Origin: a virus
Taxonomy: Duplodnaviria > Caudoviricetes
DNA: 64,000 bases
Virus record (IMG/VR): IMGVR_UViG_2548877036_000005
Location: 14,660-78,659 of that record
Direction: 5' to 3' (one strand)
Below are positions 2,112-22,900 of the stretch, in pieces. The translations under genes and the position numbers were made by a program. The stretch's first letter is position 1, and every line of letters begins with the position of its first letter. Under the pieces are notes generated by a model that searched no databases, was not told where the DNA came from, and saw nothing but the letters and a program-made list of their open reading frames with translations.

Positions 2112-2320
2112 GTTTCGTGGCGTGTTCACCCCGCCACCACCACTGCTCACCATCACATTCACGCCTCGTCTCTGATTACAGGCTGGAGCGTGAACGTCAA
2201 ATGGTGGCTTTGGAGTCTGTTACTGGCGGTTATGTGGGTGATTACCGGTTTTGGCGGGATCAGGGCGGGCGTCTGATCGATTTCCGCGACTGGCTGAAAT
2301 TTAGCAAGAGGACAGTATGA
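2108..2320 (+). CDS. Hypothetical protein
   Basis: 4-bp overlaps with both neighbours. Confidence 0.6.
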   Translation: MSFVACSPRHHHCSPSHSRLVSDYRLERERQMVALESVTGGYVGDYRFWRDQGGRLIDFRDWLKFSKRTV

Positions 2321-3231
2321 CGATTTTGACCTGCATGAGGGGATACGTTGCGAGTGGGAAGTCGTCCCGTGCCCGTGAAATTGCAGAGGAGACGGGCGCG
2401 GTTGTCGTCAATAGGGATTTGTTGCGTCTTCAGCTTCTCGGCACCTACTGGACCGGCGACCAGGACGATGAGTGGCGGGTGACTGTAGCTGAGGAAGCCC
2501 AGGTGTTGGCGTTGATGCAGGCCGATATCCCGGTTGTTGTGGACGCTACTCACCTGATGCCGTCGTATCTACGGAAGTGGGCTCGCTGGGCTACCCGTTA
2601 CGGCTGGGACTTCGCCGTCGAGGACGTGAAGACCCCGATGGATGTGTGTTTGGAGCGGTTGCGGCGCCGGAACCTCGAATCGGATCGGATCATTGAGGCT
2701 TCTGTCCTGTTTAATCAGGCTAAGCGGTACCCGATTAATCGTTGGCCGGTGATTGAGAAGCGGAAATTTAATCCGGTACCAGTGGAGCGCGACAATGCTC
2801 TACCGAAGGCGGTCATTGTTGATATAGATGGCACCTTGGCCGAAAAATGCGACCGGAGCCCTTATGACTACACCAGGGTAGGCGAAGACCGTTTACACTG
2901 GGACGTGACCTGGCTGGTGGATTTACTGGCACTGGATGACTACCACGTGCTCATTGTTTCAGGCCGGGATGATACATGCCGCGTAGATACCATAAATTGG
3001 CTGGATGACAACGGCGTCCCTTACGACCACCTGTTCATGCGGGACACCGTGGCGGATGTTGACGTGTTCGGCGGAAAACTACCGGATTACGAAGTCAAGT
3101 ATCGACTGTTCAATTGGCATATCCGAAATAAATGGTGTGTCCATTATGTGATTGATGATCGCCGCCAGGTTATCGATATGTGGCGAGGCATCGGTCTACG
3201 GGTACTTGATGTAGCTGGAAATAACTTTTAG
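2317..3231 (+). CDS. Polynucleotide 5'-kinase/3'-phosphatase (T4 PseT-like)
   Basis: N-terminal P-loop GYVASGKSS and NRD; C-terminal HAD motifs DIDGT, SGR and IDDR. Confidence 0.92.
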   Translation: MTILTCMRGYVASGKSSRAREIAEETGAVVVNRDLLRLQLLGTYWTGDQDDEWRVTVAEEAQVLALMQADIPVVVDATHLMPSYLRKWARWATRYGWDFAVEDVKTPMDVCLERLRRRNLESDRIIEASVLFNQAKRYPINRWPVIEKRKFNPVPVERDNALPKAVIVDIDGTLAEKCDRSPYDYTRVGEDRLHWDVTWLVDLLALDDYHVLIVSGRDDTCRVDTINWLDDNGVPYDHLFMRDTVADVDVFGGKLPDYEVKYRLFNWHIRNKWCVHYVIDDRRQVIDMWRGIGLRVLDVAGNNF

Positions 3232-6921: not shown

Positions 6922-8208
6922 ATGACTAAGTTTGATGTACCGAAGAACGCTAATTATGTGGCCACGATTGTGGCTGTTCCTGAGCCGGTGGATTTGCCTG
7001 GCTTGGATAATCTTGTGGGGATTCCGCAGTTCGGGTACCAGGCGTTGACTACACGCGGTATCAGTAAGGGCGACCTTCGGGTGTTGTTTACGGCAGAAAC
7101 TCAATTGTCTGCCGAGTATGTGTACGAAAATTCTTTGTCGCGGGACAAAGAGCTGAATAAGTCTGATGAGACTGGCTATATCGAGAGGCATCGCCGCATC
7201 CGTGCTATTAAGCTGCGGAAACACCAGTCAGACGCTTTGTTGATGCCGTTGGAGTCTCTAGCCTACACAGGCTATGACGTGTCCACGTTGAAGCCGGGGG
7301 ATGTGTTCGACACCCTGAATGGGTTTGAGATTTGCCGTAAGTATGAGTTGCCGAAGCAGGCCCAGCCGAAGGCTTCGGGGCCGAAGATACGGCAGCGGGT
7401 GGATCAAAAGCTGTTCCCGATGCATCTGGACACTGAACATCTGTTCCGGAACTGGGACGTGTTCCGTGAGTCAAAGTGGGCTGTGATCACGCAGAAGCTT
7501 CACGGAACTAGCATCCGTATCGGTCGTGTTCCGGCGTTGCGGGATAAGGGCTGGCTGGAGCGTGTGGTGGTCAACAAGTGGCTGCGCATCCCTACTGCTG
7601 ATACCGCATATGAGGATGTTGCGGGCTCACGTCGGGTGATTAAGGGCCGCGACGATAACAACCACTACTACGAGTCTGATATTTGGGCTGAGTATGCGAA
7701 GCGTCTTGAGGGGATGATCCCGGAGAACTTTGTCGTGTACGGGGAGTTGATCGGCTGGGAGTCCAAGGATAAGCCGATTCAGCGGGGCTACACCTATGAC
7801 CTGGAGCCTGGTGAGCGCGAGTTGTACGTGTACCGGGTGGCGATGGTGAACGGTCAGGGTGTGATCGCGGATTTGTCGTGGGATGGCGTGGAGCAGTTCT
7901 GCGCCTCTATCGGCTTGAAGACAGTTCCCGTTCTCTGCCGCCCATGTATCGACACTGGTTACGGCACAGATGACCGCGATATGACCGCGCTGTACGCGTC
8001 AAGCTATCTCAATATTCAGTTCGCTGGCGGGCCGTTCTGGGAGCAAACACCCGTGCCGCTGTCCGACCCTAAGACTGTGGATGAAGGTATCTGTGTCCGC
8101 ATTGAGGGGCGGGTTCCACAAATATTCAAGGCGAAGTCTCCTCTGTTCCTGGAGCATGAAACTAAGTCGTTGGATGCCGGTGAGCTGGATTTGGAGAGTG
8201 CGGCTTAG
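6922..8208 (+). CDS. ATP-dependent RNA ligase (Rnl2/DRB0094-like, with N-terminal OB-like domain)
   Basis: Motif [25 protein letters not shown]. Confidence 0.85.
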
Positions 8209-13579: not shown

Positions 13580-14022
13580 GTGAAGAGGTTCGTGTTACGT
13601 CCAGTACGGGCGGGGAGAAGGGCTCGAAGTTGGCCCGATTTGATCTCGTGCCGGTTCGCCCCCTGACGGAGCTGGCTGAGCTGTACGGGCGTGGGGCGGC
13701 GAAGTATGAGGACCGGAACTGGGAGCGCGGGTATGACTGGGGGCTGTCGTATGCGGCTCTGTGTCGTCATCTGACGCAGTTTTGGGCTGGCCAGGACCGT
13801 GATGAGGAGACTGGCGCGAAGCACATCATTGCGGTTGCTTGGCATGCGTTTGCGTTGGCCCAGTTCATGGAGACCCATCCGGAGTTCGACAACCGGCCCA
13901 GTGGGGCTGTCGCTGATGCTCTTGGGGTTGATTTGGAGACCCGTAAGGATCTGGTAGAACGCGCTAAGAAAGCTGCCCAAGAGACCTGGAATAACTACTA
14001 TTGGGGTGGTTCTGTTGGATAG
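13576..14022 (+). CDS. dATP/dGTP diphosphohydrolase-domain protein (DUF5664-like)
   Basis: TGGEKG-x-K-x-x-RFDL, GAAKY-x-x-RNWERG, D-x-ETG-x-x-H. Confidence 0.85.
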   Translation: MSEEVRVTSSTGGEKGSKLARFDLVPVRPLTELAELYGRGAAKYEDRNWERGYDWGLSYAALCRHLTQFWAGQDRDEETGAKHIIAVAWHAFALAQFMETHPEFDNRPSGAVADALGVDLETRKDLVERAKKAAQETWNNYYWGGSVG

Positions 14023-14563
14023 CCCTGAGGTTTGGCGCCCCATTCCCGGATATGAGGGTCATTACGAGGTGTCTAACCTGGGGCGGGTCCGGTCGCTGGA
14101 TCGGTATATAGAGACGAAGCAAGGGCTTCGATTCCGCGCAGGGTGTATCCGTAAATTTGGCAAGCATGTTGGTGGGTACCTAGAGTTGCCGTTACTGCTG
14201 GATGGTAAGCAAAAGATGTTTACGGTTCATAGGCTGGTAATGCTTGCATTCGTCGGCGAACGACCTGAAGGCTTTGACATCTGTCACAATGACGGTGACA
14301 AAACTAATAATGAGCTATCTAACTTGCGGTACGACACTAAGAAGTCGAACGCTCAGGATTCGATACGCCATGGCACCAATTGGCAGCTGAGTAAAACTAG
14401 TTGTGTAAACGGTCACGAATTCACGGTCGATAACACCGGGTATAACGATAAGGGTCAACGCTGGTGTAAGGCTTGTAGGCGTGCGCAGGTTCGCGCGCAC
14501 TATTACAATAACCCGGAATATTATAAGGCTCGCAGTGAGCGTAGACGAACGAAGGTATCCTAA
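14006..14563 (+). CDS. NUMOD4-HNH homing endonuclease
   Basis: WRPIPGYEGHYEVSNLGRVRS; VHRLV ... CHNDGDKTNN ... NL. Confidence 0.92.
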   Translation: MVLLDSPEVWRPIPGYEGHYEVSNLGRVRSLDRYIETKQGLRFRAGCIRKFGKHVGGYLELPLLLDGKQKMFTVHRLVMLAFVGERPEGFDICHNDGDKTNNELSNLRYDTKKSNAQDSIRHGTNWQLSKTSCVNGHEFTVDNTGYNDKGQRWCKACRRAQVRAHYYNNPEYYKARSERRRTKVS

Positions 14564-15337
14564 TTGTCGCCGCGTGTGCTCGTTATCGACGTGGAGTCTC
14601 AGAGGGCTGTAGTCGAGTCGTTTAATTTGTTTCCTAAGTACATCACAATTGATCGGGTCATTCGGCCTACACGCCTGCTGTGCTTCGCTGCTAAGTTTGT
14701 AGATGAAGACCGCGTGCGATTCTTTCCCGCTTGGGATGATGATGACCTGCCCGCGTATGAGCGCATGGTACACGCGGCTTGGGCGTTGTTGGACGAGGCT
14801 GACATTGTTGTCGGGTGGAATAACACCCGTTACGACGATAAGTATTTTAATGCAGCATTCGGTAAGATGGGCTTGGGGCCGGTCTCCCCATATAAGTCTT
14901 TGGACTTAATGCAGGTGGCCAAAAAGAACTTCGCGGCAGGCGAGCTGAGCCTCAAATTGGATTGGTTCTCGCGTATGTGGCTGGGGGACGCGAAAACAAA
15001 TCACGGCGGCACAGACCTGTGGCACGACATAAGGTATGGCACGCGAGCAGAGCGTCGCGCCGCCCAGAAAATCATGCGTACGTACAATATCCACGATGTC
15101 GAGTTGACCGCAGAGCTTTATCATAAATTCTTGCCGTGGTCGAACATCAATATGGGTATTTACCATGATGATGGTGTGCCGCATTGTTCTAAGTGTGGTG
15201 GGACTGATTTGCGGCGTTCTGGGTTTCATTATACGTCTGCGGGGAAGTTTCAGGAGTATCGTTGCCGGGATAAGGATTGTCGGGGTTGGTCTCGTGGTTC
15301 TAAGCGGTTGGCGACTACTGAGTTGAGGTCGGCCTGA
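14564..15337 (+). CDS. DnaQ/RNase H-like 3'-5' exonuclease with C-terminal zinc ribbon
   Basis: IDVES, GWN-x-x-x-YD, YNIHDV; C-terminal CSKC ... C-x4-C. Confidence 0.85.
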   Translation: MSPRVLVIDVESQRAVVESFNLFPKYITIDRVIRPTRLLCFAAKFVDEDRVRFFPAWDDDDLPAYERMVHAAWALLDEADIVVGWNNTRYDDKYFNAAFGKMGLGPVSPYKSLDLMQVAKKNFAAGELSLKLDWFSRMWLGDAKTNHGGTDLWHDIRYGTRAERRAAQKIMRTYNIHDVELTAELYHKFLPWSNINMGIYHDDGVPHCSKCGGTDLRRSGFHYTSAGKFQEYRCRDKDCRGWSRGSKRLATTELRSA

Positions 15338-15634
15338 TGGCTCATGGGGCTTCCTATGTAACCGTGATCGTTGATTTTGGTTTTGATCCTAATCCGTTCC
15401 GTTGGGACGTTTTGGAAACTTGGATGATGGTTTCATTTTATGACGAGTTGAGGCTGATCAATTGGCTGCTAGAGGGTCGATAAAGCCGCTGCCTGATCCT
15501 GCCCGGAACATCATGTTGGAATTCAAGCAGTCTGAGCTTCTGCGGATGGTTGATAAAGCTGCGTCTGCTGGGGTGTCTACGCATGAATGGGCTCAGGAGG
15601 CTTTGATCGTCGCCTGTAAGTAGGGGGTGGTCAT

Positions 15635-16063
15635 ATCGCAGGGAATCTGCGTCGGAAAGCTGGCCCTGATGCTGCCCGTACCGATCGTGAGTATCAGCGC
15701 GCGCGGCGTATAGCTCAACGTAGGTCTTCTATCTGCACTGTGTGTCGTCAGGCTGTGGATATGCGTTTGAAGCCTATTTGTAGGTTTGTGGATACTGATG
15801 GTTTTCCGGTTGAGCGGGCGCATGAGATTCCGTTGGAGTGTGGTGACCCGAATTGTCGGGCAGGGCACTCACGTAAGCCTAATCCGTGGTCGTGGTCTGC
15901 TGGGCATAAGGTTCCGGTTGCGAAGTTGGCTCCGGATTCTCCGTTGTTGACTGATCCGAATAACCTCGAAACGCAGCATTTGCGCTGTAATAAACAGGTC
16001 GGTGATCGTGATACCGGCAAATCGGATACTAGCTGTAAGGTTTCTCGTGATTGGTTCCTGTAA
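15635..16063 (+). CDS. HNH endonuclease (packaging-associated type); start uncertain
   Basis: CTVC, SAGHKVP, NLETQHLRCNKQVGD; frame open from 15620; ATC at 15635 follows a G-rich RBS. Confidence 0.8.
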   Translation: MAGNLRRKAGPDAARTDREYQRARRIAQRRSSICTVCRQAVDMRLKPICRFVDTDGFPVERAHEIPLECGDPNCRAGHSRKPNPWSWSAGHKVPVAKLAPDSPLLTDPNNLETQHLRCNKQVGDRDTGKSDTSCKVSRDWFL

Positions 16064-16380
16064 AGATTTTAGTCCGTTGTTGGACAGGTTTGAGTGTGTT
16101 GAATGCTTAGACAGGTTCCGTGTTGTTTATCCGGCGAAATGGATGCTTCAGGTTCACCAGTTGACGCATGGGCATATGGCTTGGCGTGTGGTGGGCGAGG
16201 ATTCTGATTCTGTTGAATGGGATAATTCCTGATGCCCCGGCCCAATGGCGAGCCGTTCTGGTTTGAATCCTATTCTTCGCCTCTTCCCCAGTTTGGGGAG
16301 CGTCGGCCTGTCTCGGAGGGTTGGCCGGAGGTTCCGGAGGGATTCGATTTCGAGTTGTGGCGTGACCGGGAGCGGTATTG

Positions 16381-16581
16381 ATGTCTGATCTTCCTAAGTA
16401 TTCGGTTGTGTTCTCAGATGAGGACAATGAGTGGGTTGCGACGTGTGATATTTTTCCGTCGTTGTCTTGGCTTGATTCTGATCCAGTTGAGGCGCTTGAG
16501 CAGTTATGTAATTTGATAGATGACGTTATCGATGACTTGGTTTATGCCGAGTTTCCGGGGCATTTGAGGTTGGTGAAATGA
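16381..16581 (+). CDS. HicB-like antitoxin domain protein
   Basis: Y-x-V-x-FSDEDNEWVATC-x-x-FPSLSWL ... EAL, the HicB N-terminal fold pattern. Confidence 0.7.
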   Translation: MSDLPKYSVVFSDEDNEWVATCDIFPSLSWLDSDPVEALEQLCNLIDDVIDDLVYAEFPGHLRLVK

Positions 16582-16698
16582 CTGATTCCGAGGATGATGC
16601 TGTTGAGGTTCCGGAATTTTCGGAGCGGCGTCGAATGTATGGGATGCCAGCTTGTTGTGATGCGAAGTCGGTTGAGGATTTTCTGAGGCAGTGGGGTA

Positions 16699-16899
16699 AT
16701 GGCTGAGGAATGGTCTGAGGATCGTATTCGGGGGATTGTGCGGGATGAGTTGGCGGCGGCTGAGGCTGAGGCGTCTTTGATGATTGCTACTGAGCAGGCG
16801 TTGTATAAGGCTGTTTTTGACCAGTTTTTGGCTGATTCTGATCTTCCTGATGATGTGCGTGCGCAGTTGTCTAAGTTTGTGGATGATCTGCTTGGCTGA
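16699..16899 (+). CDS. Hypothetical protein
   Basis: RBS plus ATG; last ORF before the tRNA region. Confidence 0.6.
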   Translation: MAEEWSEDRIRGIVRDELAAAEAEASLMIATEQALYKAVFDQFLADSDLPDDVRAQLSKFVDDLLG

Positions 16900-16904
16900 G
16901 TTCG

Positions 16905-16978
16905 GCTGCCTTAGCTCAATCTGGTAGAGCAGCGGCTTTGTAACCCGCAGGTTGGCAGTTCAATTCTGCCAGGCAGCT
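16905..16978 (+). tRNA. tRNA-Thr(UGU)
   Basis: Acceptor GCTGCCT/AGGCAGC, D arm GCTC/GAGC, anticodon loop TTTGTAA, T arm GGCAG-TTCAATT-CTGCC. Confidence 0.9.
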
Positions 16979-16981
16979 CAA

Positions 16982-17087
16982 TGTGGGGTGAGGATCAGTG
17001 GGAGGGCCAGGGAAAGCTAGCTAGTACCTGGTGGCCGTGATCGGCGCATAGGGCGCAGGCAGCGGGTTTAATTCCCGCCGCCCCGCA
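16982..17087 (+). ncRNA. Aberrant tRNA-like RNA without a D arm
   Basis: TGTGGGGTG/CGCCCCGCA terminal stem, T arm GCGGG-TTTAATT-CCCGC, long internal stem and a GCGC hairpin. Confidence 0.55.
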
Positions 17088-17092
17088 GGTTT

Positions 17093-17164
17093 AGCGGTGT
17101 AGAGCAGTGGTAGCTTGTCGGGCTCATAACCCGAAGGTCGCATGTTCGACTCATGCCACCGCTA
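17093..17164 (+). tRNA. tRNA-Met(CAU), initiator-like anticodon stem
   Basis: AGCGGTG/CACCGCT, anticodon arm TCGGG-CTCATAA-CCCGA, T loop TTCGACT. Confidence 0.9.
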
Positions 17165-17312
17165 CGTAGGGAAATGGTGACGCCCCCGGTTTGATTCCGC
17201 GAATGGGTTGCCGGTGTCAGCCTTCTACCTGAGTGAAGGTCGAGCCACCTATGTTCCGGTGACTATTCAAGCCTTTTGGTTATGGACTCCCGGTGCAACA
17301 GTTCAGGTGGCC

Positions 17313-17386
17313 GCAAGGGTGTAGTTTCAATCAAAATACTGGGAGTCCAACCCCGGAGATGCAGGACGATCCTGCTGCCCGCGCCA
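17313..17386 (+). pseudogene. Degenerate tRNA (Gly UCC-like or Trp CCA-like)
   Basis: GGGTGTAGTTT start, CTGGG-AGTCCAAC-CCCGG arm, GCAGG/CCTGC arm with a shortened loop, ends TGCCCGCGCCA. Confidence 0.45.
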
Positions 17387-17426
17387 ATAAAAATGATATG
17401 TGCGTGATGCACGGAAAGAAGGCGTG

Positions 17427-17705
17427 ATGCCTAAAGAGTATATTGGTAGGGAACCACAAGAGCGTGGCTCTGTTAGTGTGTCGTGGGGCCGGGACCATTG
17501 TATGGTGCAGTTGTCTGTGGCCGGTCCAATCGGGTGGAGAAGCGACCGCTTGCCGTCGCCCGATCCCAAGGGTGTGCAGGTGTGTGGCTATTCACCTGAT
17601 GAAGATTTGGATTGGCATTTTAGCGTTAAGCACCGTAATGAGATCAACGATTTGATCCGTGTGCTTCGTAAGGCTCGTGATCAGGCTTTTGGCCGGGACG
17701 AGTAA
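17427..17705 (+). CDS. Hypothetical protein within the tRNA region
   Basis: RBS AGAAGG plus ATG; C-terminal EINDLIRVLRKARDQAFGRDE. Confidence 0.75.
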   Translation: MPKEYIGREPQERGSVSVSWGRDHCMVQLSVAGPIGWRSDRLPSPDPKGVQVCGYSPDEDLDWHFSVKHRNEINDLIRVLRKARDQAFGRDE

Positions 17706-17944
17706 ATAGACTTCGGGTTAGGCTACCCGCGATCCTCCTTTGGGTCGTGCCCACTCCTTTGGGGGCAACAAAAGGCCCCAGTAACGGTTGTATCGCCGTG
17801 CCCGTCTGGCCAGTTAGGGTGAATGATCCGCTGTTGTCATCGTTAGGGACATAAGCGGGCCGACGCTGACTAAATATCGGCCACCTAAAATGTGCCCAGG
17901 TGGGGTGCCTTCCCTGTTGAAATATCCTACCTAAGGAATAAGTT

Positions 17945-18148
17945 ATGCAGCGTATCGGCATTGAGCGCTACAAGCGGGAGTTACACGATAGCCCGGACGG
18001 ATGGCCCTATTCGGGGTTGATTGAGGGTAGTCGAGATGATGGTTCCCGTTGGATTATGTGGCTTGATGAGCAGGGCAGCCCCGCGTTGTTCTACGCGAAC
18101 CGTGATGAGTACGGTGGCGTGGTTGGTGACCCGGTGGCTTTGCAATAA
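17945..18148 (+). CDS. Hypothetical protein within the tRNA region
   Basis: AAGGA RBS plus ATG. Confidence 0.65.
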   Translation: MQRIGIERYKRELHDSPDGWPYSGLIEGSRDDGSRWIMWLDEQGSPALFYANRDEYGGVVGDPVALQ

Positions 18149-19000
18149 ATCTGCCCACCTGCATGCAAGGTGGAGCTGTAAATCCAGACGTGCATAGAAG
18201 CTGCACGGTCATGAAAGAGCACATACCGGCTGCTGGTGTCGGGTGTGTGTGCGCCTAGCGGATGGTGCGAAGATGTCCGCAGACGGCCACGCATGTTTTA
18301 TCTGACGTGGTTGGGGTGACACCGCTTTTAGGTGGTGAAGAAACCCGTGAGGTGTAAACGTGTCTGCCCTCCGCTGTGATAGCCGACAGCAGAGCGGGCG
18401 TGAGTGGAGTTTCCGACAGGGCGCTCATGCTTTCACCTTGTTAAGGTTGGACACCTTCGGGTAGGTGGAGAGGTTAACTCTGCGAAGCTAGGTGTCGTGC
18501 GGGAATAGGCCCCCCGTATTTTCTACCCAAAACCTGCTAGCCGGGATAGAAGTGCTAGCCCCATATTCCGAATGGGTTACGGAGGTAGTGATACCACCAC
18601 TGTGGAACCCCAGAACCGTCCCTGTAGCCCTCTTTTTTTTAGAGGGCAGATCAAACGGCTGGGTAGTTGCGCTGTGTCTATCCGTCTGGGGTTCTACGGC
18701 CCTGGGGTGATAGATGTGTGGCGAATGAGCTAATTCGTCACAGCTTGGCAAGCTAATCCTCCCAGCCCCCCCGTCCAGGGTTCTGCACTGGCTGGGTTTT
18801 AGGTTGCCCGTGATCCTAAACGGGCCGACTTGGCTCCCCGTTACTTGTTGCCCGGCATTCCCTTCTGTCGTCAACCCGAAGGATTAACTTGTGGGGATTG
18901 GGTGTCCCCGTACGCGACCAGGCTCTCGCGTCTGTTCAGTAGGGTGAACGCACGGAAACCGCCCAATCTTAAACGGCAAACGGTCATGTGCCCGCAATCT
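18149..19000 (+). ncRNA. Candidate large structured non-coding RNA
   Basis: ~850 nt without a credible RBS-led ORF; continuous succession of hairpins; flanked by tRNA-like elements. Confidence 0.45.
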
Positions 19001-19081
19001 TCACCTGTGCGCTCAAATGGTTAGAGCGGCTAGCGGTACCCAATCCGGCAGTGTGTCTCGGTTCAATTCCGGGCAGGTGAT
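19001..19081 (+). tRNA. tRNA-like gene with an abnormal anticodon arm (identity undetermined)
   Basis: TCACCTG/CAGGTGA acceptor, GCTC-AAATGGTTA-GAGC D arm, CTCGG-TTCAATT-CCGGG T arm; middle arm CGG-TACCCAAT-CCG. Confidence 0.65.
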
Positions 19082-19240
19082 CAGGGGATGCAACCTTTTC
19101 CAGAGAATGCTGCATCATCGCGTGGGTGCTGGAAACACCGCGAGGCGACGGAATGTAGGACTCACCCACCCGGCCTAAAAAAAGGGTGAACGGGAGGTAG
19201 ATATTTCTACGATCACGCTGGGTCCGTTAAGCCCATCTCA

Positions 19241-19300
19241 TAGACGACTCTGGTGGGGCCGGATACAGGTTGCGGAGGTTCGATTCCTTCATCGTCTACA
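19241..19300 (+). ncRNA. Mini tRNA-like fold (acceptor stem plus T arm)
   Basis: TAGACGA/TCGTCTA stem and GGAGG-TTCGATT-CCTTC arm, with only one short hairpin between. Confidence 0.5.
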
Positions 19301-19511
19301 AGGCATGGTTGGTGGTTCGAATCCGCCTGCGGTTATTGCCCTCTATGCATGGAGGGAGCTGGGTCTTAGTTCGCGCGAAAGCCACCCGGTGCGGTAATAC
19401 GTATACGTCTCAATTGGTAGAGCGGTGCCCCTCTACTTCCACCTTTCCCAGTCCCCTAACTCGCTGCGGATGCGCCAAGGATTGTGTTGGCGCTGAAAAT
19501 GGTGGACCAAT

Positions 19512-19584
19512 GTCTGGGTAGCTCAATTGGTAGAGCGGTGGTCTCCAAAGCCACTGGTTGCAGGTTCAAGTCCTGTCCCATTCG
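19512..19584 (+). tRNA. tRNA-Trp(CCA), two acceptor-stem mismatches
   Basis: GCTC-AATTGGTA-GAGC, GTGGT-CTCCAAA-GCCAC, GCAGG-TTCAAGT-CCTGT; acceptor GTCTGGG/CCCATTC. Confidence 0.85.
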
Positions 19585-19737
19585 CGGTTGCGCGGGGCAG
19601 GCGTTGGGCGGAACCGACCGTTCACCCCGCTCGCGTCCCGGCGCGGTTACGGCAGCACGTAAGGATCTGCCGATCCGGGCATAACTTTCTAGCTATTTAG
19701 CCCAGCTTGGCGTATTAAACCATGTGCAAAGTGAAAC

Positions 19738-19953
19738 TCATTCGGTGATGTTGAATCGTACGTTTTGACCGTTAACTATTTTCTGCACATTGGGGAATGG
19801 GATGCCGTATTGGTCAGCGATTTTGCGGTATGACCATCCCTCATTGTGGAGTTGTCGGATGAGTTCGTGGGATTGTCGGTAGAGTTCACTGGTTTCATCC
19901 ATTGAGCTTTTGAGTTCTTTGATTATTTCGGCCATCAGGTCAGGTGTGGTCAC
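19738..19953 (-). CDS. Small helix-turn-helix DNA-binding protein
   Basis: GWSYRKIADQYGIPFPNVQKIV; GTGA overlap start at 19953. Confidence 0.75.
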   Translation of the reverse strand: MTTPDLMAEIIKELKSSMDETSELYRQSHELIRQLHNEGWSYRKIADQYGIPFPNVQKIVNGQNVRFNITE

Positions 19954-22900
19954 ACTTGTACCGCTTTCAGGTCGTGTGGATGCCATTGCCCCCATGTTTC
20001 GGCCCATGCTGTTTGGGCTGCGCTCTTGGTTTTGAATACGGCTACTTTGGATACTGTGATGCCGTTTGGTAGTTCCCAATCCAGGGTTGGGTACCATTCT
20101 TCATCGAATGCGGGGCCTCCCCAGTAGTGGCCGTCGAGGTTTTGGATTACCCAGCCTTTTTGTCCGTGGTAGTAGGTGGTTTTCTGCCAGAGTGAGCGTG
20201 CTGGTTTTTGGCCTTGTCTAATTTTTTCGGTGCGATAGATTGTTCTCACTTGAAAAACTCCCAGCTTGGCGGATTTAAAGCTGTGCAAAGTAGCGGCGTG
20301 ATTGGGTTATGGGATGGTCCAGTAGTTGCAGCTACTTGTGGACGGGTTGCATGCGATGGCGGGACCGCTGTTGGTGTATGGCGGTGTCTCCCAGGTGGGC
20401 ATGAGTGGCCCGTTGTATCCCGGCTGGTATTGGCAGACGTTGAATTGTTCGCAGGGCGCGGTGTAGATGGCTAGCGCGAGTAGCGTGGTGATCATGGTTT
20501 GTTCTTTTCTGCGATTCTGTCGAGTATTTTGTCGATCCACGTCGGCTCGTCAGGGAAGCCGCGCCGCATATCCGGCCTGTAGGGTTTATATCCGGGCTGT
20601 AATGTCACACTGGTAACCAAGTCGCCGTAAGCGCTCATGCTTGTTCCTTGTGTTGCTGTAGGTAGGCGATAACCTCTATTTCGCGCTTGCTCCAAGCCCT
20701 ACCAGGACAGATTGAACCACCGACAAATCGGTTGTCATAGGACTTAATCGCCGTCCTGACCCGACCGCTCGGGTAGTACTCCAGGTATAGCTGCGCGCCT
20801 TCGGGATGTTGGTATTGCACTGCGAATCGATCTGGTTTCCACCAAACATGTCTAGCCTCTATAAGGCTCCAGCCGTTTTCTTTGGCTGCTTGTTCTATAC
20901 GCTCACGCCCGGTCATAGTGATGTCTCGCAAGTGCATGGTGTCGGATACCCGCAGTAAGAGCACTTGTCTAGGCTGTCCCAGATGGCATCAAAGTCATAG
21001 GTCTCGGTGCTCATTGTTCTTCCCTTAGGTATGAGAGAGCTAGACGGACACCTTCAACCTTGCCGCCGAGTCTGCGAACCTCGGCGATATCCACGTCGCC
21101 AGGGTGTAGAGATTTAGACTTAGCGGCGGTGTGCATGGCCACCAGTTCAAGTTCGGCTTTCTCTAGCCGTTCTATTACTGCATCGATATCGGTCATAGCA
21201 CTGTCCAACCATCCGGTCCACTCTGCTCTAGACGTTCAAGCCATTGGCCCATAACGGACTGTGCAATCGAATTTATCGCCGCACGCACCGCTTCCTCGCC
21301 AGGATATTTCTCGGGCTCTGAGTAGAGTTTACCCACGGGCGTCTGGTACACGTATCGAATCATCGTCCCTCCTTGTTTAGTAGTTCTGTAAGGTAATAGG
21401 CATGCGGTCGTCTAGAACGCGCGTACGGAGCGTGTCAGCCATTGCGAGACCTCACATACTCGCTAGCCGCCAATAGTGCGCGCGCTAAGGTCTCGGCATC
21501 GTCTGCGTTCTCAATCACGCTACTGACTCCAGACATGCCGATCCTGCCGTCCGTTCGGCGGATGAAGATCTCACCGGCATGTATTCCAGTGCGCTTAGTT
21601 CCTGTCATTGAACAGGTTACCGGCACTTCCCAGGATGCTTCATAAAAATCGCTGGGCACCTTTTCAGGTAGCTCTACCGTCAATGTGCTCACTGTTCTAG
21701 TTCTCCTTAGTGAGTAGGTAGTCAGAGCCGGTCAACATTGTGGGCGACGTGATCGAACTTGTCGGAACCGCCGAACAGGGTTACTACCCCGTCAACCTGC
21801 GCCCCCACCTGGTTGTAAAGTTTCTCCGCTTTACGGGAATCGCTGTCATAGCCGAATTCGTCGGCCCAAGACTCAAAAGATCCTGCGTCACGATATGCGC
21901 TGACCTCACTAACCAGTGAGTCTGCCACTTCTTCAGCGCTGGGGCGGGTAGTGATTGCCATACCTGCACGCCATGGGGTAGTGAACCTAAAGCCATCGGC
22001 ATTTTCAAGTGTCACAGTGTAGGCGCGGTGGTCCCAACCATCCTCGTCACGCGCGTACCCGTGATCTTCAATATTGACGATACCGATGTCGTTGACTTCG
22101 ATGTATTCCGTGATGTTCATTTCTTGTTCCTATCTATTAGTTGGTATGTGGGTTACTTGGCGCTCAGCTGTAAGAAGACCGCGCGCCACCGCGCTTCACA
22201 GAAGGTCCGGGTCCATCCGCAACGTCCGTCACAACTCTTGTCGTGTTCCATTGTTTCTATCCTTGGTATGTAGTAGGGGATTAGTAGGGTAGGTCGGTCA
22301 AATCGTCTGAGTAGTGTTCGGCATAGTTGACCTCGTGCCCGACAAGCGCGGCTGCGTGCTCGGCGGCCTCGCATTCACTGCTTGCGATGACGTAGATGTC
22401 TTCATCTCCGGTGTCTACGACATACACGGCGCTCATCTATCTAGTCCTTATCTCAGTCTATTCTGACGATATGCCCGACTACATTGCCGTGCCCGTCCTG
22501 CACGTCCAGTGCGTGATCGATCGTTTTACTACCGGCCATAATCACCGGGTTATGCCACAGCTTGCGTGTCATTACTAGTGCGGATCTCAGTGCTTGCACA
22601 CCTTCACCGGACCACAGCCGGGCACCCTTGCTGGTAAGGATTACTTGCCTCATCTATCTAGTCCTTATCCAATGGACGGTAGGCAATCCACCAACCGTAT
22701 CCCCGGTCATCGTCTTCAAATTCTGGCTGAGAGCCATCCTCTCGGTACCCGTTGGCGACCAAGCACACGTAGTCACCTGGCGTCTCCAGAATGTGCCGTT
22801 CAAGTCCGCCACCGACAAATTCGGACTGGTGAAATGTGGGGCCGTGGTAGTTGTACTGGCCGCTAAAGCCGCGTAGCAGCTCCCACCCCTCGGGAATGCC

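Follow-up and report, generated by a model that had tools for sequence, protein, structure and literature searches.

The stretch described here, positions 18149-19000 of a window of 64,000 nucleotides (nt) comprising bases 14660-78659 of a 78,659-base IMG/VR provirus record, lies at the close of a long rightward operon whose genes serve DNA and RNA metabolism, and ends in a 109-nt structured small RNA (18889-18997, + strand) whose family includes the RNA of the intergenic region between genes 63 and 64 of phage D29. The operon encodes a DnaB-like helicase, polynucleotide kinase-phosphatase, WhiB, SSB, RNA ligase, RecA and Clp, as well as NT5C, a dGTP diphosphohydrolase, an HNH endonuclease (14006-14563) and an RNase H-fold protein, with three tRNA genes called by both ARAGORN and Rfam (Thr at 16905, Met at 17093 and Trp at 19512) and leftward gene orientation from 19738 on. 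Sequence similarity identifies the provirus as a Mycobacterium-type prophage, with part of its leftward operon matched by M. abscessus prophages at 95-97% identity and its terminase region ~73% like that of cluster L mycobacteriophages.

The first-pass annotation of this DNA described 18149-19000 as a gene-free, hairpin-dense stretch lacking the coding skew of its surroundings, and proposed a single large ornate RNA, either a divergent relative of the GOLLD and ROOL RNAs or a new actinophage non-coding RNA released from a tRNA-containing precursor. The absence of genes is borne out, with all open reading frames (ORFs) of at least 30 amino acids (aa) scoring as non-coding (codon log-odds ≤0.023; the score was derived from 20 long genes in the window, and real genes average 0.42, their 5th percentile at 35 codons being 0.052); the small upstream genes at 17400-17705 and 17945-18148 score 0.22 and 0.42 respectively. 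None of the eight stop-to-stop frames in the stretch has a PHROG match, compared with both of the two flanking genes, and the longest frame, a 128-aa minus-strand ORF at 18488-18874, has no match in Pfam, by tblastn, or among 5.8 billion proteins. The loss of coding skew likewise holds, the GC skew falling from +0.16 to +0.43 over 14000-17000 to between -0.02 and +0.07 over 18400-19000.

The nine stem pairs listed in the annotation (CCACCT/AGGTGG and CGTGCA/TGCACG among them) are all found, between 18155 and 18825, and an excess of structure over chance is borne out in part. The whole 852 nt fold better than shuffled sequence (z -3.36 on the + strand and -3.01 on the - strand, with 0/20 shuffles as good on each), and 25 perfect stems of at least 6 base pairs (bp) are present against 14.7 ± 3.6 in shuffles, none of 200 of which reaches 25, this count also being reached by 2/39 coding tiles. 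No excess is seen for perfect stems of at least 7 bp (equalled by 33/200 shuffles) or at least 8 bp. Within the stretch, just two sliding windows of 150 nt stand out, at 18600-18749 (z -3.3) and at 18675-18824 (z -4.4; -4.37), limiting the local folding excess to 18600-18824, with 18150-18600 at the level of shuffles (z -0.3 to -1.8).

Conservation is confined to the end of the stretch. The element at 18889-18997 takes the shape of a rod, formed by P1 (18889-18895/18991-18997), P2 (18896-18904/18960-18968), a 3 × 4 internal loop and P3 (18908-18911/18952-18955), and capped by a junction bearing two hairpins, P4 (18912-18917/18926-18931, loop CCAGGCUC) and P5 (18933-18938/18945-18950, loop GUAGGG), with a 3-bp mini-hairpin, P6 (18975-18977/18983-18985), completing the six helices. 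All lie on the + strand and belong to a covariance model of the family, R1, which was built from an alignment of 12 distinct sequences representing ~7 lineages, with element lengths of 93-133 nt. The window copy scores 114.1 bits against the full model (E about 1e-27 to 2e-27, match 18884-19003) and forms all 31 of the model pairs, with its single-sequence minimum free energy (MFE) fold exactly that of the consensus. One copy is found per source in 12 sources (65.7-127.1 bits), and neither the window nor any of five records searched in full has another. Rfam searches, run at the gathering threshold over the whole window and at E≤10 over 16500-20500 and 18100-19100, yield only tRNAs and sub-threshold noise, and the 36 Rfam matches in eight homologous loci are every one to tRNA.

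The helices of R1 are supported by compensatory change. Across the alignment, 88.6% of 352 cells pair, compared with 30.9-42.7% when the partners are slid by 1-3 columns, and double changes occur in 24/31 pairs, compared with 5-12 in the slid controls. The covariation score of 0.479 is likewise well separated from the slid controls (≤0.128), with 0/500 shuffles reaching it. Double changes are seen in five of the six helices, the sixth being invariant except for an A/G position that still pairs with U. A pseudoknot between the P5 loop (UARG) and the junction (CUUA) is possible, these positions showing too little variation for covariation. Judged by sequence comparison, 18889-18997 is thus an autonomous, conserved small RNA with helices that covary across ~7 phage lineages, autonomous because the upstream 740 nt have no counterpart in the loci of its relatives.

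One recurrent feature of the family is an invariant 24-nt core, UUAAACG-R-CAAACGGUCAUGUGCC (18969-18992, + strand), which spans the junction between P2 and P6, the mini-hairpin P6 and the junction between P6 and P1, and forms a three-way junction between P1 and P2. The core is identical in 12/12 members except at the single R position, compared with between-lineage identities of 27-65% elsewhere, and accounts for 24 of the 32 invariant columns in one block. It has one exact match in the window. A 22-nt form of the core matches six metagenome stretches. Exact patterns made from either half of the core matched 18 and 24 stretches, in each case including the same six genuine IMG/VR members. A scan anchored on the other conserved features returned known members only, none with a variant core block. 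The core sequence was found neither in plasmids nor in a search of the published literature, and its 21 specified bases occur in only 1/185,579 species genomes, in a stretch identical to D29. The contig in question, from Paraburkholderia bengalensis (NZ_JACFYJ010000065.1, 6996-7145), is identical to D29 over the 150 nt compared, and is likely contamination of the assembly. The core is unchanged in phages with GC contents of 45-64% and has no copy or complement in host genomes, which points to recognition by a conserved host factor or to an active centre, and speaks against both long antisense pairing and an attachment sequence of host origin.

A second recurrent feature is the loop of P4, which contains a 6-nt palindrome at the same loop position in 8/9 of the P4-bearing members (CCUAGG in six and CUGCAG in two). 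CUGCAG differs from CCUAGG at four positions yet remains self-complementary, suggesting loop-loop dimerisation.

Homologues of the element give a discrete, abundant transcript in infections by D29 and StarStuff. Positions 18900-18993 match 22 cluster A2 records (the D29 group, Odin, Superchunk and Adzzy) at 80-85% identity in a blastn search of 50,697 phage records, with the window copy 85.3% identical over 95 nt to the D29 63-64 intergenic region. In D29 the match site is flanked by gene 64, which encodes the recombination directionality factor (RDF), and by gene 63, and falls on the right arm's coding strand. Strand-specific RNA-seq by Dedrick et al. 2017 (PMC5712189) shows a bottom-strand transcript raised in the 63-64 region compared with the genes on either side, and a prominent transcript at the matching site of StarStuff, between genes 68 and 69; the accessible text of that paper presents the D29 RNA without structure, family or function. 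The match to the window element falls on the transcribed strand of D29. No published structure or name for the D29 RNA was found in a literature search that covered passages of the main text of PMC10690425, which reports 8,495 IMG/VR candidate RNAs, and a second D29 transcriptome preprint leaves the 63-64 region unmentioned.

In the D29 record itself (NC_001900.2; locus L002, 1490-1595), gene 63 is annotated with a TTG start that extends it by ~150 nt through the RNA. In most sister records, either gene 63 begins at an ATG further downstream or the RNA is left unannotated, the latter in 17/22, and the TTG start is probably an over-extended annotation. The alignment of the window copy with D29 contains a 1-nt indel, and this, together with the 17/22 phage records with nothing annotated there, shows the element to be non-coding.

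In the metagenomic relatives (loci L023, L014, L046, L022 and L048), the element lies on the tRNA strand within phage tRNA arrays of four lineages. In L023, it occupies 626-746, between tRNA-Ser genes at 541-624 and 747-834, and the arrangement in L014 is alike, the element filling the spacer between the two tRNA-Ser genes with 1-4 nt left over. In L046, it is found between tRNA-Asp and tRNA-Thr, in L022 it abuts a CUA-anticodon tRNA, and in L048 a CUA-anticodon tRNA lies 284 nt downstream. In other phages the conserved part stands alone, with tRNA genes bounding it within 1-20 nt. The CUA-anticodon tRNAs (L022 5175-5389 and L048 574-647) would be amber-reading, and are labelled Pyl by ARAGORN. 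Each of the carriers of L022 and L023, which are distantly related to large Streptomyces phages, encodes a Ro60 (TROVE) protein; of the five records examined, two (G002 and G003) hold a Ro60 gene together with the element.

The 740 nt upstream of the element (18149-18888) behave differently. A blastn search with 18149-18895 against the same 50,697 phage records returned nothing at E≤0.01, and 18149-18888 has no counterpart in 56 fetched loci, save for one weak 44-nt match (18384-18427, 79.5%) to the spacer that follows the tRNA array in phage phiGD24-3; no tRNA-like signal was found there by ARAGORN at relaxed thresholds. We read this region as a lineage-specific leader or spacer RNA. Its first part (18149-18597, neither strand favoured) is a non-coding spacer with short hairpins, showing no conservation, no local folding excess and no PHROG match. 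The 105 nt that follow (18598-18702, + strand), at the centre of the local folding excess, form a three-way junction closed by a stem of 15 bp and bearing two hairpins, one with a U-rich loop (18627-18647) and a second of 7 bp; it coincides with inverted repeat I5. This folds strongly on both strands, with an MFE of -49.8 kcal/mol (z -4.76, 0/200 shuffles) on the + strand and -42.3 kcal/mol (z -4.19) on the minus strand, and an IMG/VR scan with the pattern of its long helix (18602-18697) gave no match. It is a lineage-specific structure that may serve as a double-strand-specific processing site. Three more hairpins (18717-18742, 18761-18796 and 18806-18825) lie within 18705-18835 on the + strand, where the evidence is modest (z -1.62 on the + strand and 0.05 on the - strand).

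Downstream, a tRNA-like unit (19002-19082, + strand) starts 5 nt past P1 of the element. It is called only weakly, by ARAGORN at the 85% threshold, and is missed by default ARAGORN and by Rfam. The additional tRNA-like calls at 85% all lie outside 18149-18997, and the 70% threshold gives noise. One of the 85% calls, at 16992-17086 and with a 4-base anticodon call, sits exactly between tRNA-Thr and tRNA-Met, and the 150-nt window around it folds well (z -3.3). Two further units uncalled by default tRNA finders were recognised by eye, one at 19241-19300 with a 7-bp acceptor-like stem and a T arm, lacking a D arm, and one at 19302-19429 in which the T arm precedes the D arm within a closing stem, a permuted order that has been described for YrlA-type Y RNAs (PMC4201824). 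The polynucleotide kinase-phosphatase (2317-3231) and RNA ligase (6922-8208) genes together make up a tRNA-repair pair and share their operon with this RNA island. A repeat search of 17000-19800 found no repeated modules. In a scan for promoters and terminators, no promoter-like site appeared, and the 3 terminator-like sites, on the minus strand, fell below the shuffle mean. The 67-aa protein flanking the stretch has no relatives in IMG/VR. The prophage prophi86-1 was ruled out as a syntenic relative of the island, having only the leftward operon in common with the provirus.

A search for RNA data sets holding this stretch listed none. Two contigs from wastewater libraries labelled 'RNA-Seq', of 212 nt (run X1) and 151 nt (run X2), are identical to 19222-19431 and 18924-19072 respectively, with the rest of the 2-kb stretch compared uncovered, except for cross-matches at the tRNA-Trp region. 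Both libraries are rated 'probably DNA', and the contigs are not used as evidence.

Taken together, we consider it probable (about 0.68) that 18149-19000 is a composite non-coding operon tail, the terminal 109 nt of which are an autonomous small RNA that tRNA processing sets free and that probably acts in trans. The element would share a transcript with the island's tRNAs and tRNA-like units and be excised by the enzymes that trim its tRNA neighbours, with RNase P acting at the downstream unit and 3' trimming acting upstream; 5' processing of the tRNA-like unit at 19002-19082 would then set the 3' end of the element. The RNA would persist because its ends are paired, and would act in trans through its invariant junction, which may serve as a surface where a conserved cellular factor of RNA metabolism docks, in the manner of a Y-RNA-type tether or decoy, with the palindromic P4 loop allowing loop-loop dimerisation. 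Release by tRNA enzymes and stable accumulation appear to be the simplest model, as the ends are paired, the element is embedded among tRNAs and its D29 homologue gives a transcript peak.

Several observations weigh against this interpretation. The pair counts derive from an alignment fitted to R1 itself, and several of its rows are close kin, with D29, L011, Odin and Adzzy forming one group and L022 and L048 another, and with L014 equal to L023 over the aligned element columns outside the invariant block, the two differing just 5' of the element. The 5' side of L047 is arranged differently. The MFE of the element is unremarkable against shuffles (z -0.81, 44/200), so the structural support is entirely comparative and not thermodynamic. 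The transcript evidence belongs to the D29 and StarStuff homologues and not to this prophage, and the D29 group (including L011), L047 and L049 have a protein gene 25-50 nt downstream of the element in place of a tRNA. No Ro60 gene was found in the 78.7-kb provirus or in the G001 and G004 fragments, and no cultured Ro60-encoding Streptomyces phage matched the core. Cluster A phages, D29 included, are not known to carry Ro60. The P4 loop of the window copy is not palindromic, reading CCAGG with one base lost, and the Y RNA motif CGAA or GNCGAAN0-1G is present in 0/12 members.

A bolder interpretation, less likely than not, is that the family constitutes a hitherto undescribed, phage-restricted RNA class in which the invariant three-way-junction core is an active centre, either of a new self-processing ribozyme of tRNA arrays or of a Ro60-independent tether capturing a universal host factor of RNA metabolism, with homodimers formed by kissing of the covarying, palindromic P4 loops.

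An unlikely alternative is that the element acts in cis, in processive antitermination or transcript protection after the manner of nut, put or rrn-leader sites, safeguarding RNA polymerase or the transcript across untranslated tRNA arrays and long early operons, with the core binding conserved host Nus-type factors or polymerase. Antitermination sites have a boxA-plus-hairpin layout, which the invariant single-stranded block followed by a mini-hairpin may resemble, the element is always on the sense strand within long operons or untranslated tRNA arrays, and the invariance of the core over 45-64% GC would suit a universal host partner. However, nut-type sites do not require a covarying scaffold of 100 nt with paired ends, and the D29 homologue accumulates as a discrete RNA at levels exceeding those of the adjacent genes, behaviour that better suits a stable RNA acting in trans. 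Rather less likely still is a role in punctuating tRNA arrays, either as a self-processing ribozyme or as the substrate of a dedicated nuclease, with the invariant three-way-junction core as the active site. Other small ribozymes occur beside phage tRNAs, and an invariant core amid variable, covarying helices, tightly placed between tRNAs, would fit such a role; against this, no Rfam ribozyme matches at E≤10, the helices are nested and not double-pseudoknotted, and tRNA processing already explains release.

The single large RNA of ~850 nt originally proposed, whether of a divergent GOLLD/ROOL type or of a new class, is now improbable, despite the non-coding nature of the stretch, its whole-fold z of -3.4, its position beside prophage tRNAs and the strong junction at 18598-18702. 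Covariance searches place it in no Rfam family at threshold, with none relevant even at E≤10, the folding of 18150-18600 is ordinary, and only the last 109 nt are conserved, standing alone between tRNAs elsewhere. The broader suggestion of a new actinophage non-coding RNA from a tRNA-containing precursor fits these 109 nt, which covary, occur in tRNA arrays of four other lineages and are homologous to a D29 region with an RNA-seq peak. The least credible alternative, conservation of the DNA itself (a site for recombination, replication or a homing endonuclease) or a mobile module with an incidental fold, could draw on the 24 contiguous invariant bases, the HNH gene of the operon and a scattered distribution in unrelated phages suggestive of horizontal movement, but compensatory changes in five helices are unexpected of protein-binding DNA, the transcript is strand-specific, there is one copy per record with no repeats, and absence of the core from 185,579 host species genomes, bar the D29-identical stretch, excludes a host attachment sequence.

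Phage tRNA arrays are usually interpreted as codon-supply or counter-defence cargo, with the non-tRNA spacers between them ignored. A small RNA released from such a spacer would link an orphan RNA-seq peak of D29 to the tRNA arrays of uncultured phages, some of which encode Ro60, and makes this peak testable in an engineerable model phage, in addition to correcting the annotation of D29 gene 63, the TTG start of which overlaps the RNA. More generally, a long, gene-free and hairpin-rich stretch may conceal one small real RNA and not a giant one.

In comparison with known RNAs, the element shares with GOLLD and ROOL a phage or prophage location beside tRNA genes, but its conserved unit is 109 nt in place of several hundred and shows no multi-domain conservation; as no model matches and only 109 nt are conserved, it is not a member of either class. 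With tRNAs and the tRNA-like domain of transfer-messenger RNA (tmRNA) it shares a 7-bp terminal stem and a position in tRNA arrays, and its release by tRNA-processing enzymes is probable, although it lacks a T loop and no Rfam tRNA or tmRNA match or relaxed-ARAGORN call falls within 18149-18997. No Rfam family of small self-cleaving ribozymes matches at E≤10, and hammerhead-like junctions and double pseudoknots like that of hepatitis delta virus were rejected by eye, the letters of the core and the nested helices being unsuited to either.

Y RNAs (YrlA, Yrl1/2) are bound by Ro60/Rsr (PMC4201824, PMC12135203), and resemble the element in their length of ~100 nt, their paired 5' and 3' ends and their large conserved internal loop, here formed by P1 and a 22-nt loop on the 3' side. 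Additionally, the element lies among tRNAs in a Ro60-bearing record in two lineages, and GUCCG, part of the animal Y RNA motif GGUCCGA, occurs in 3/12 members. In contrast to Y RNAs, the element has no T-arm/D-arm module, its conserved loop is on the 3' strand and this prophage carries no Ro60 gene, and it is not classed as a Y RNA because the CGAA-type motif and the T and D arms are absent. R1 instead assigns the element to the family of the D29 63-64 RNA. In cluster A2 phages the RNA has the RDF gene on one side and the gene of a small protein on the other, within the early right arm, whereas the window copy lies in a tRNA island, ahead of a tRNA-like unit, and is one base short of the palindromic P4 loop; the six helices, the invariant core and a position on the sense strand of the operon are common to both.

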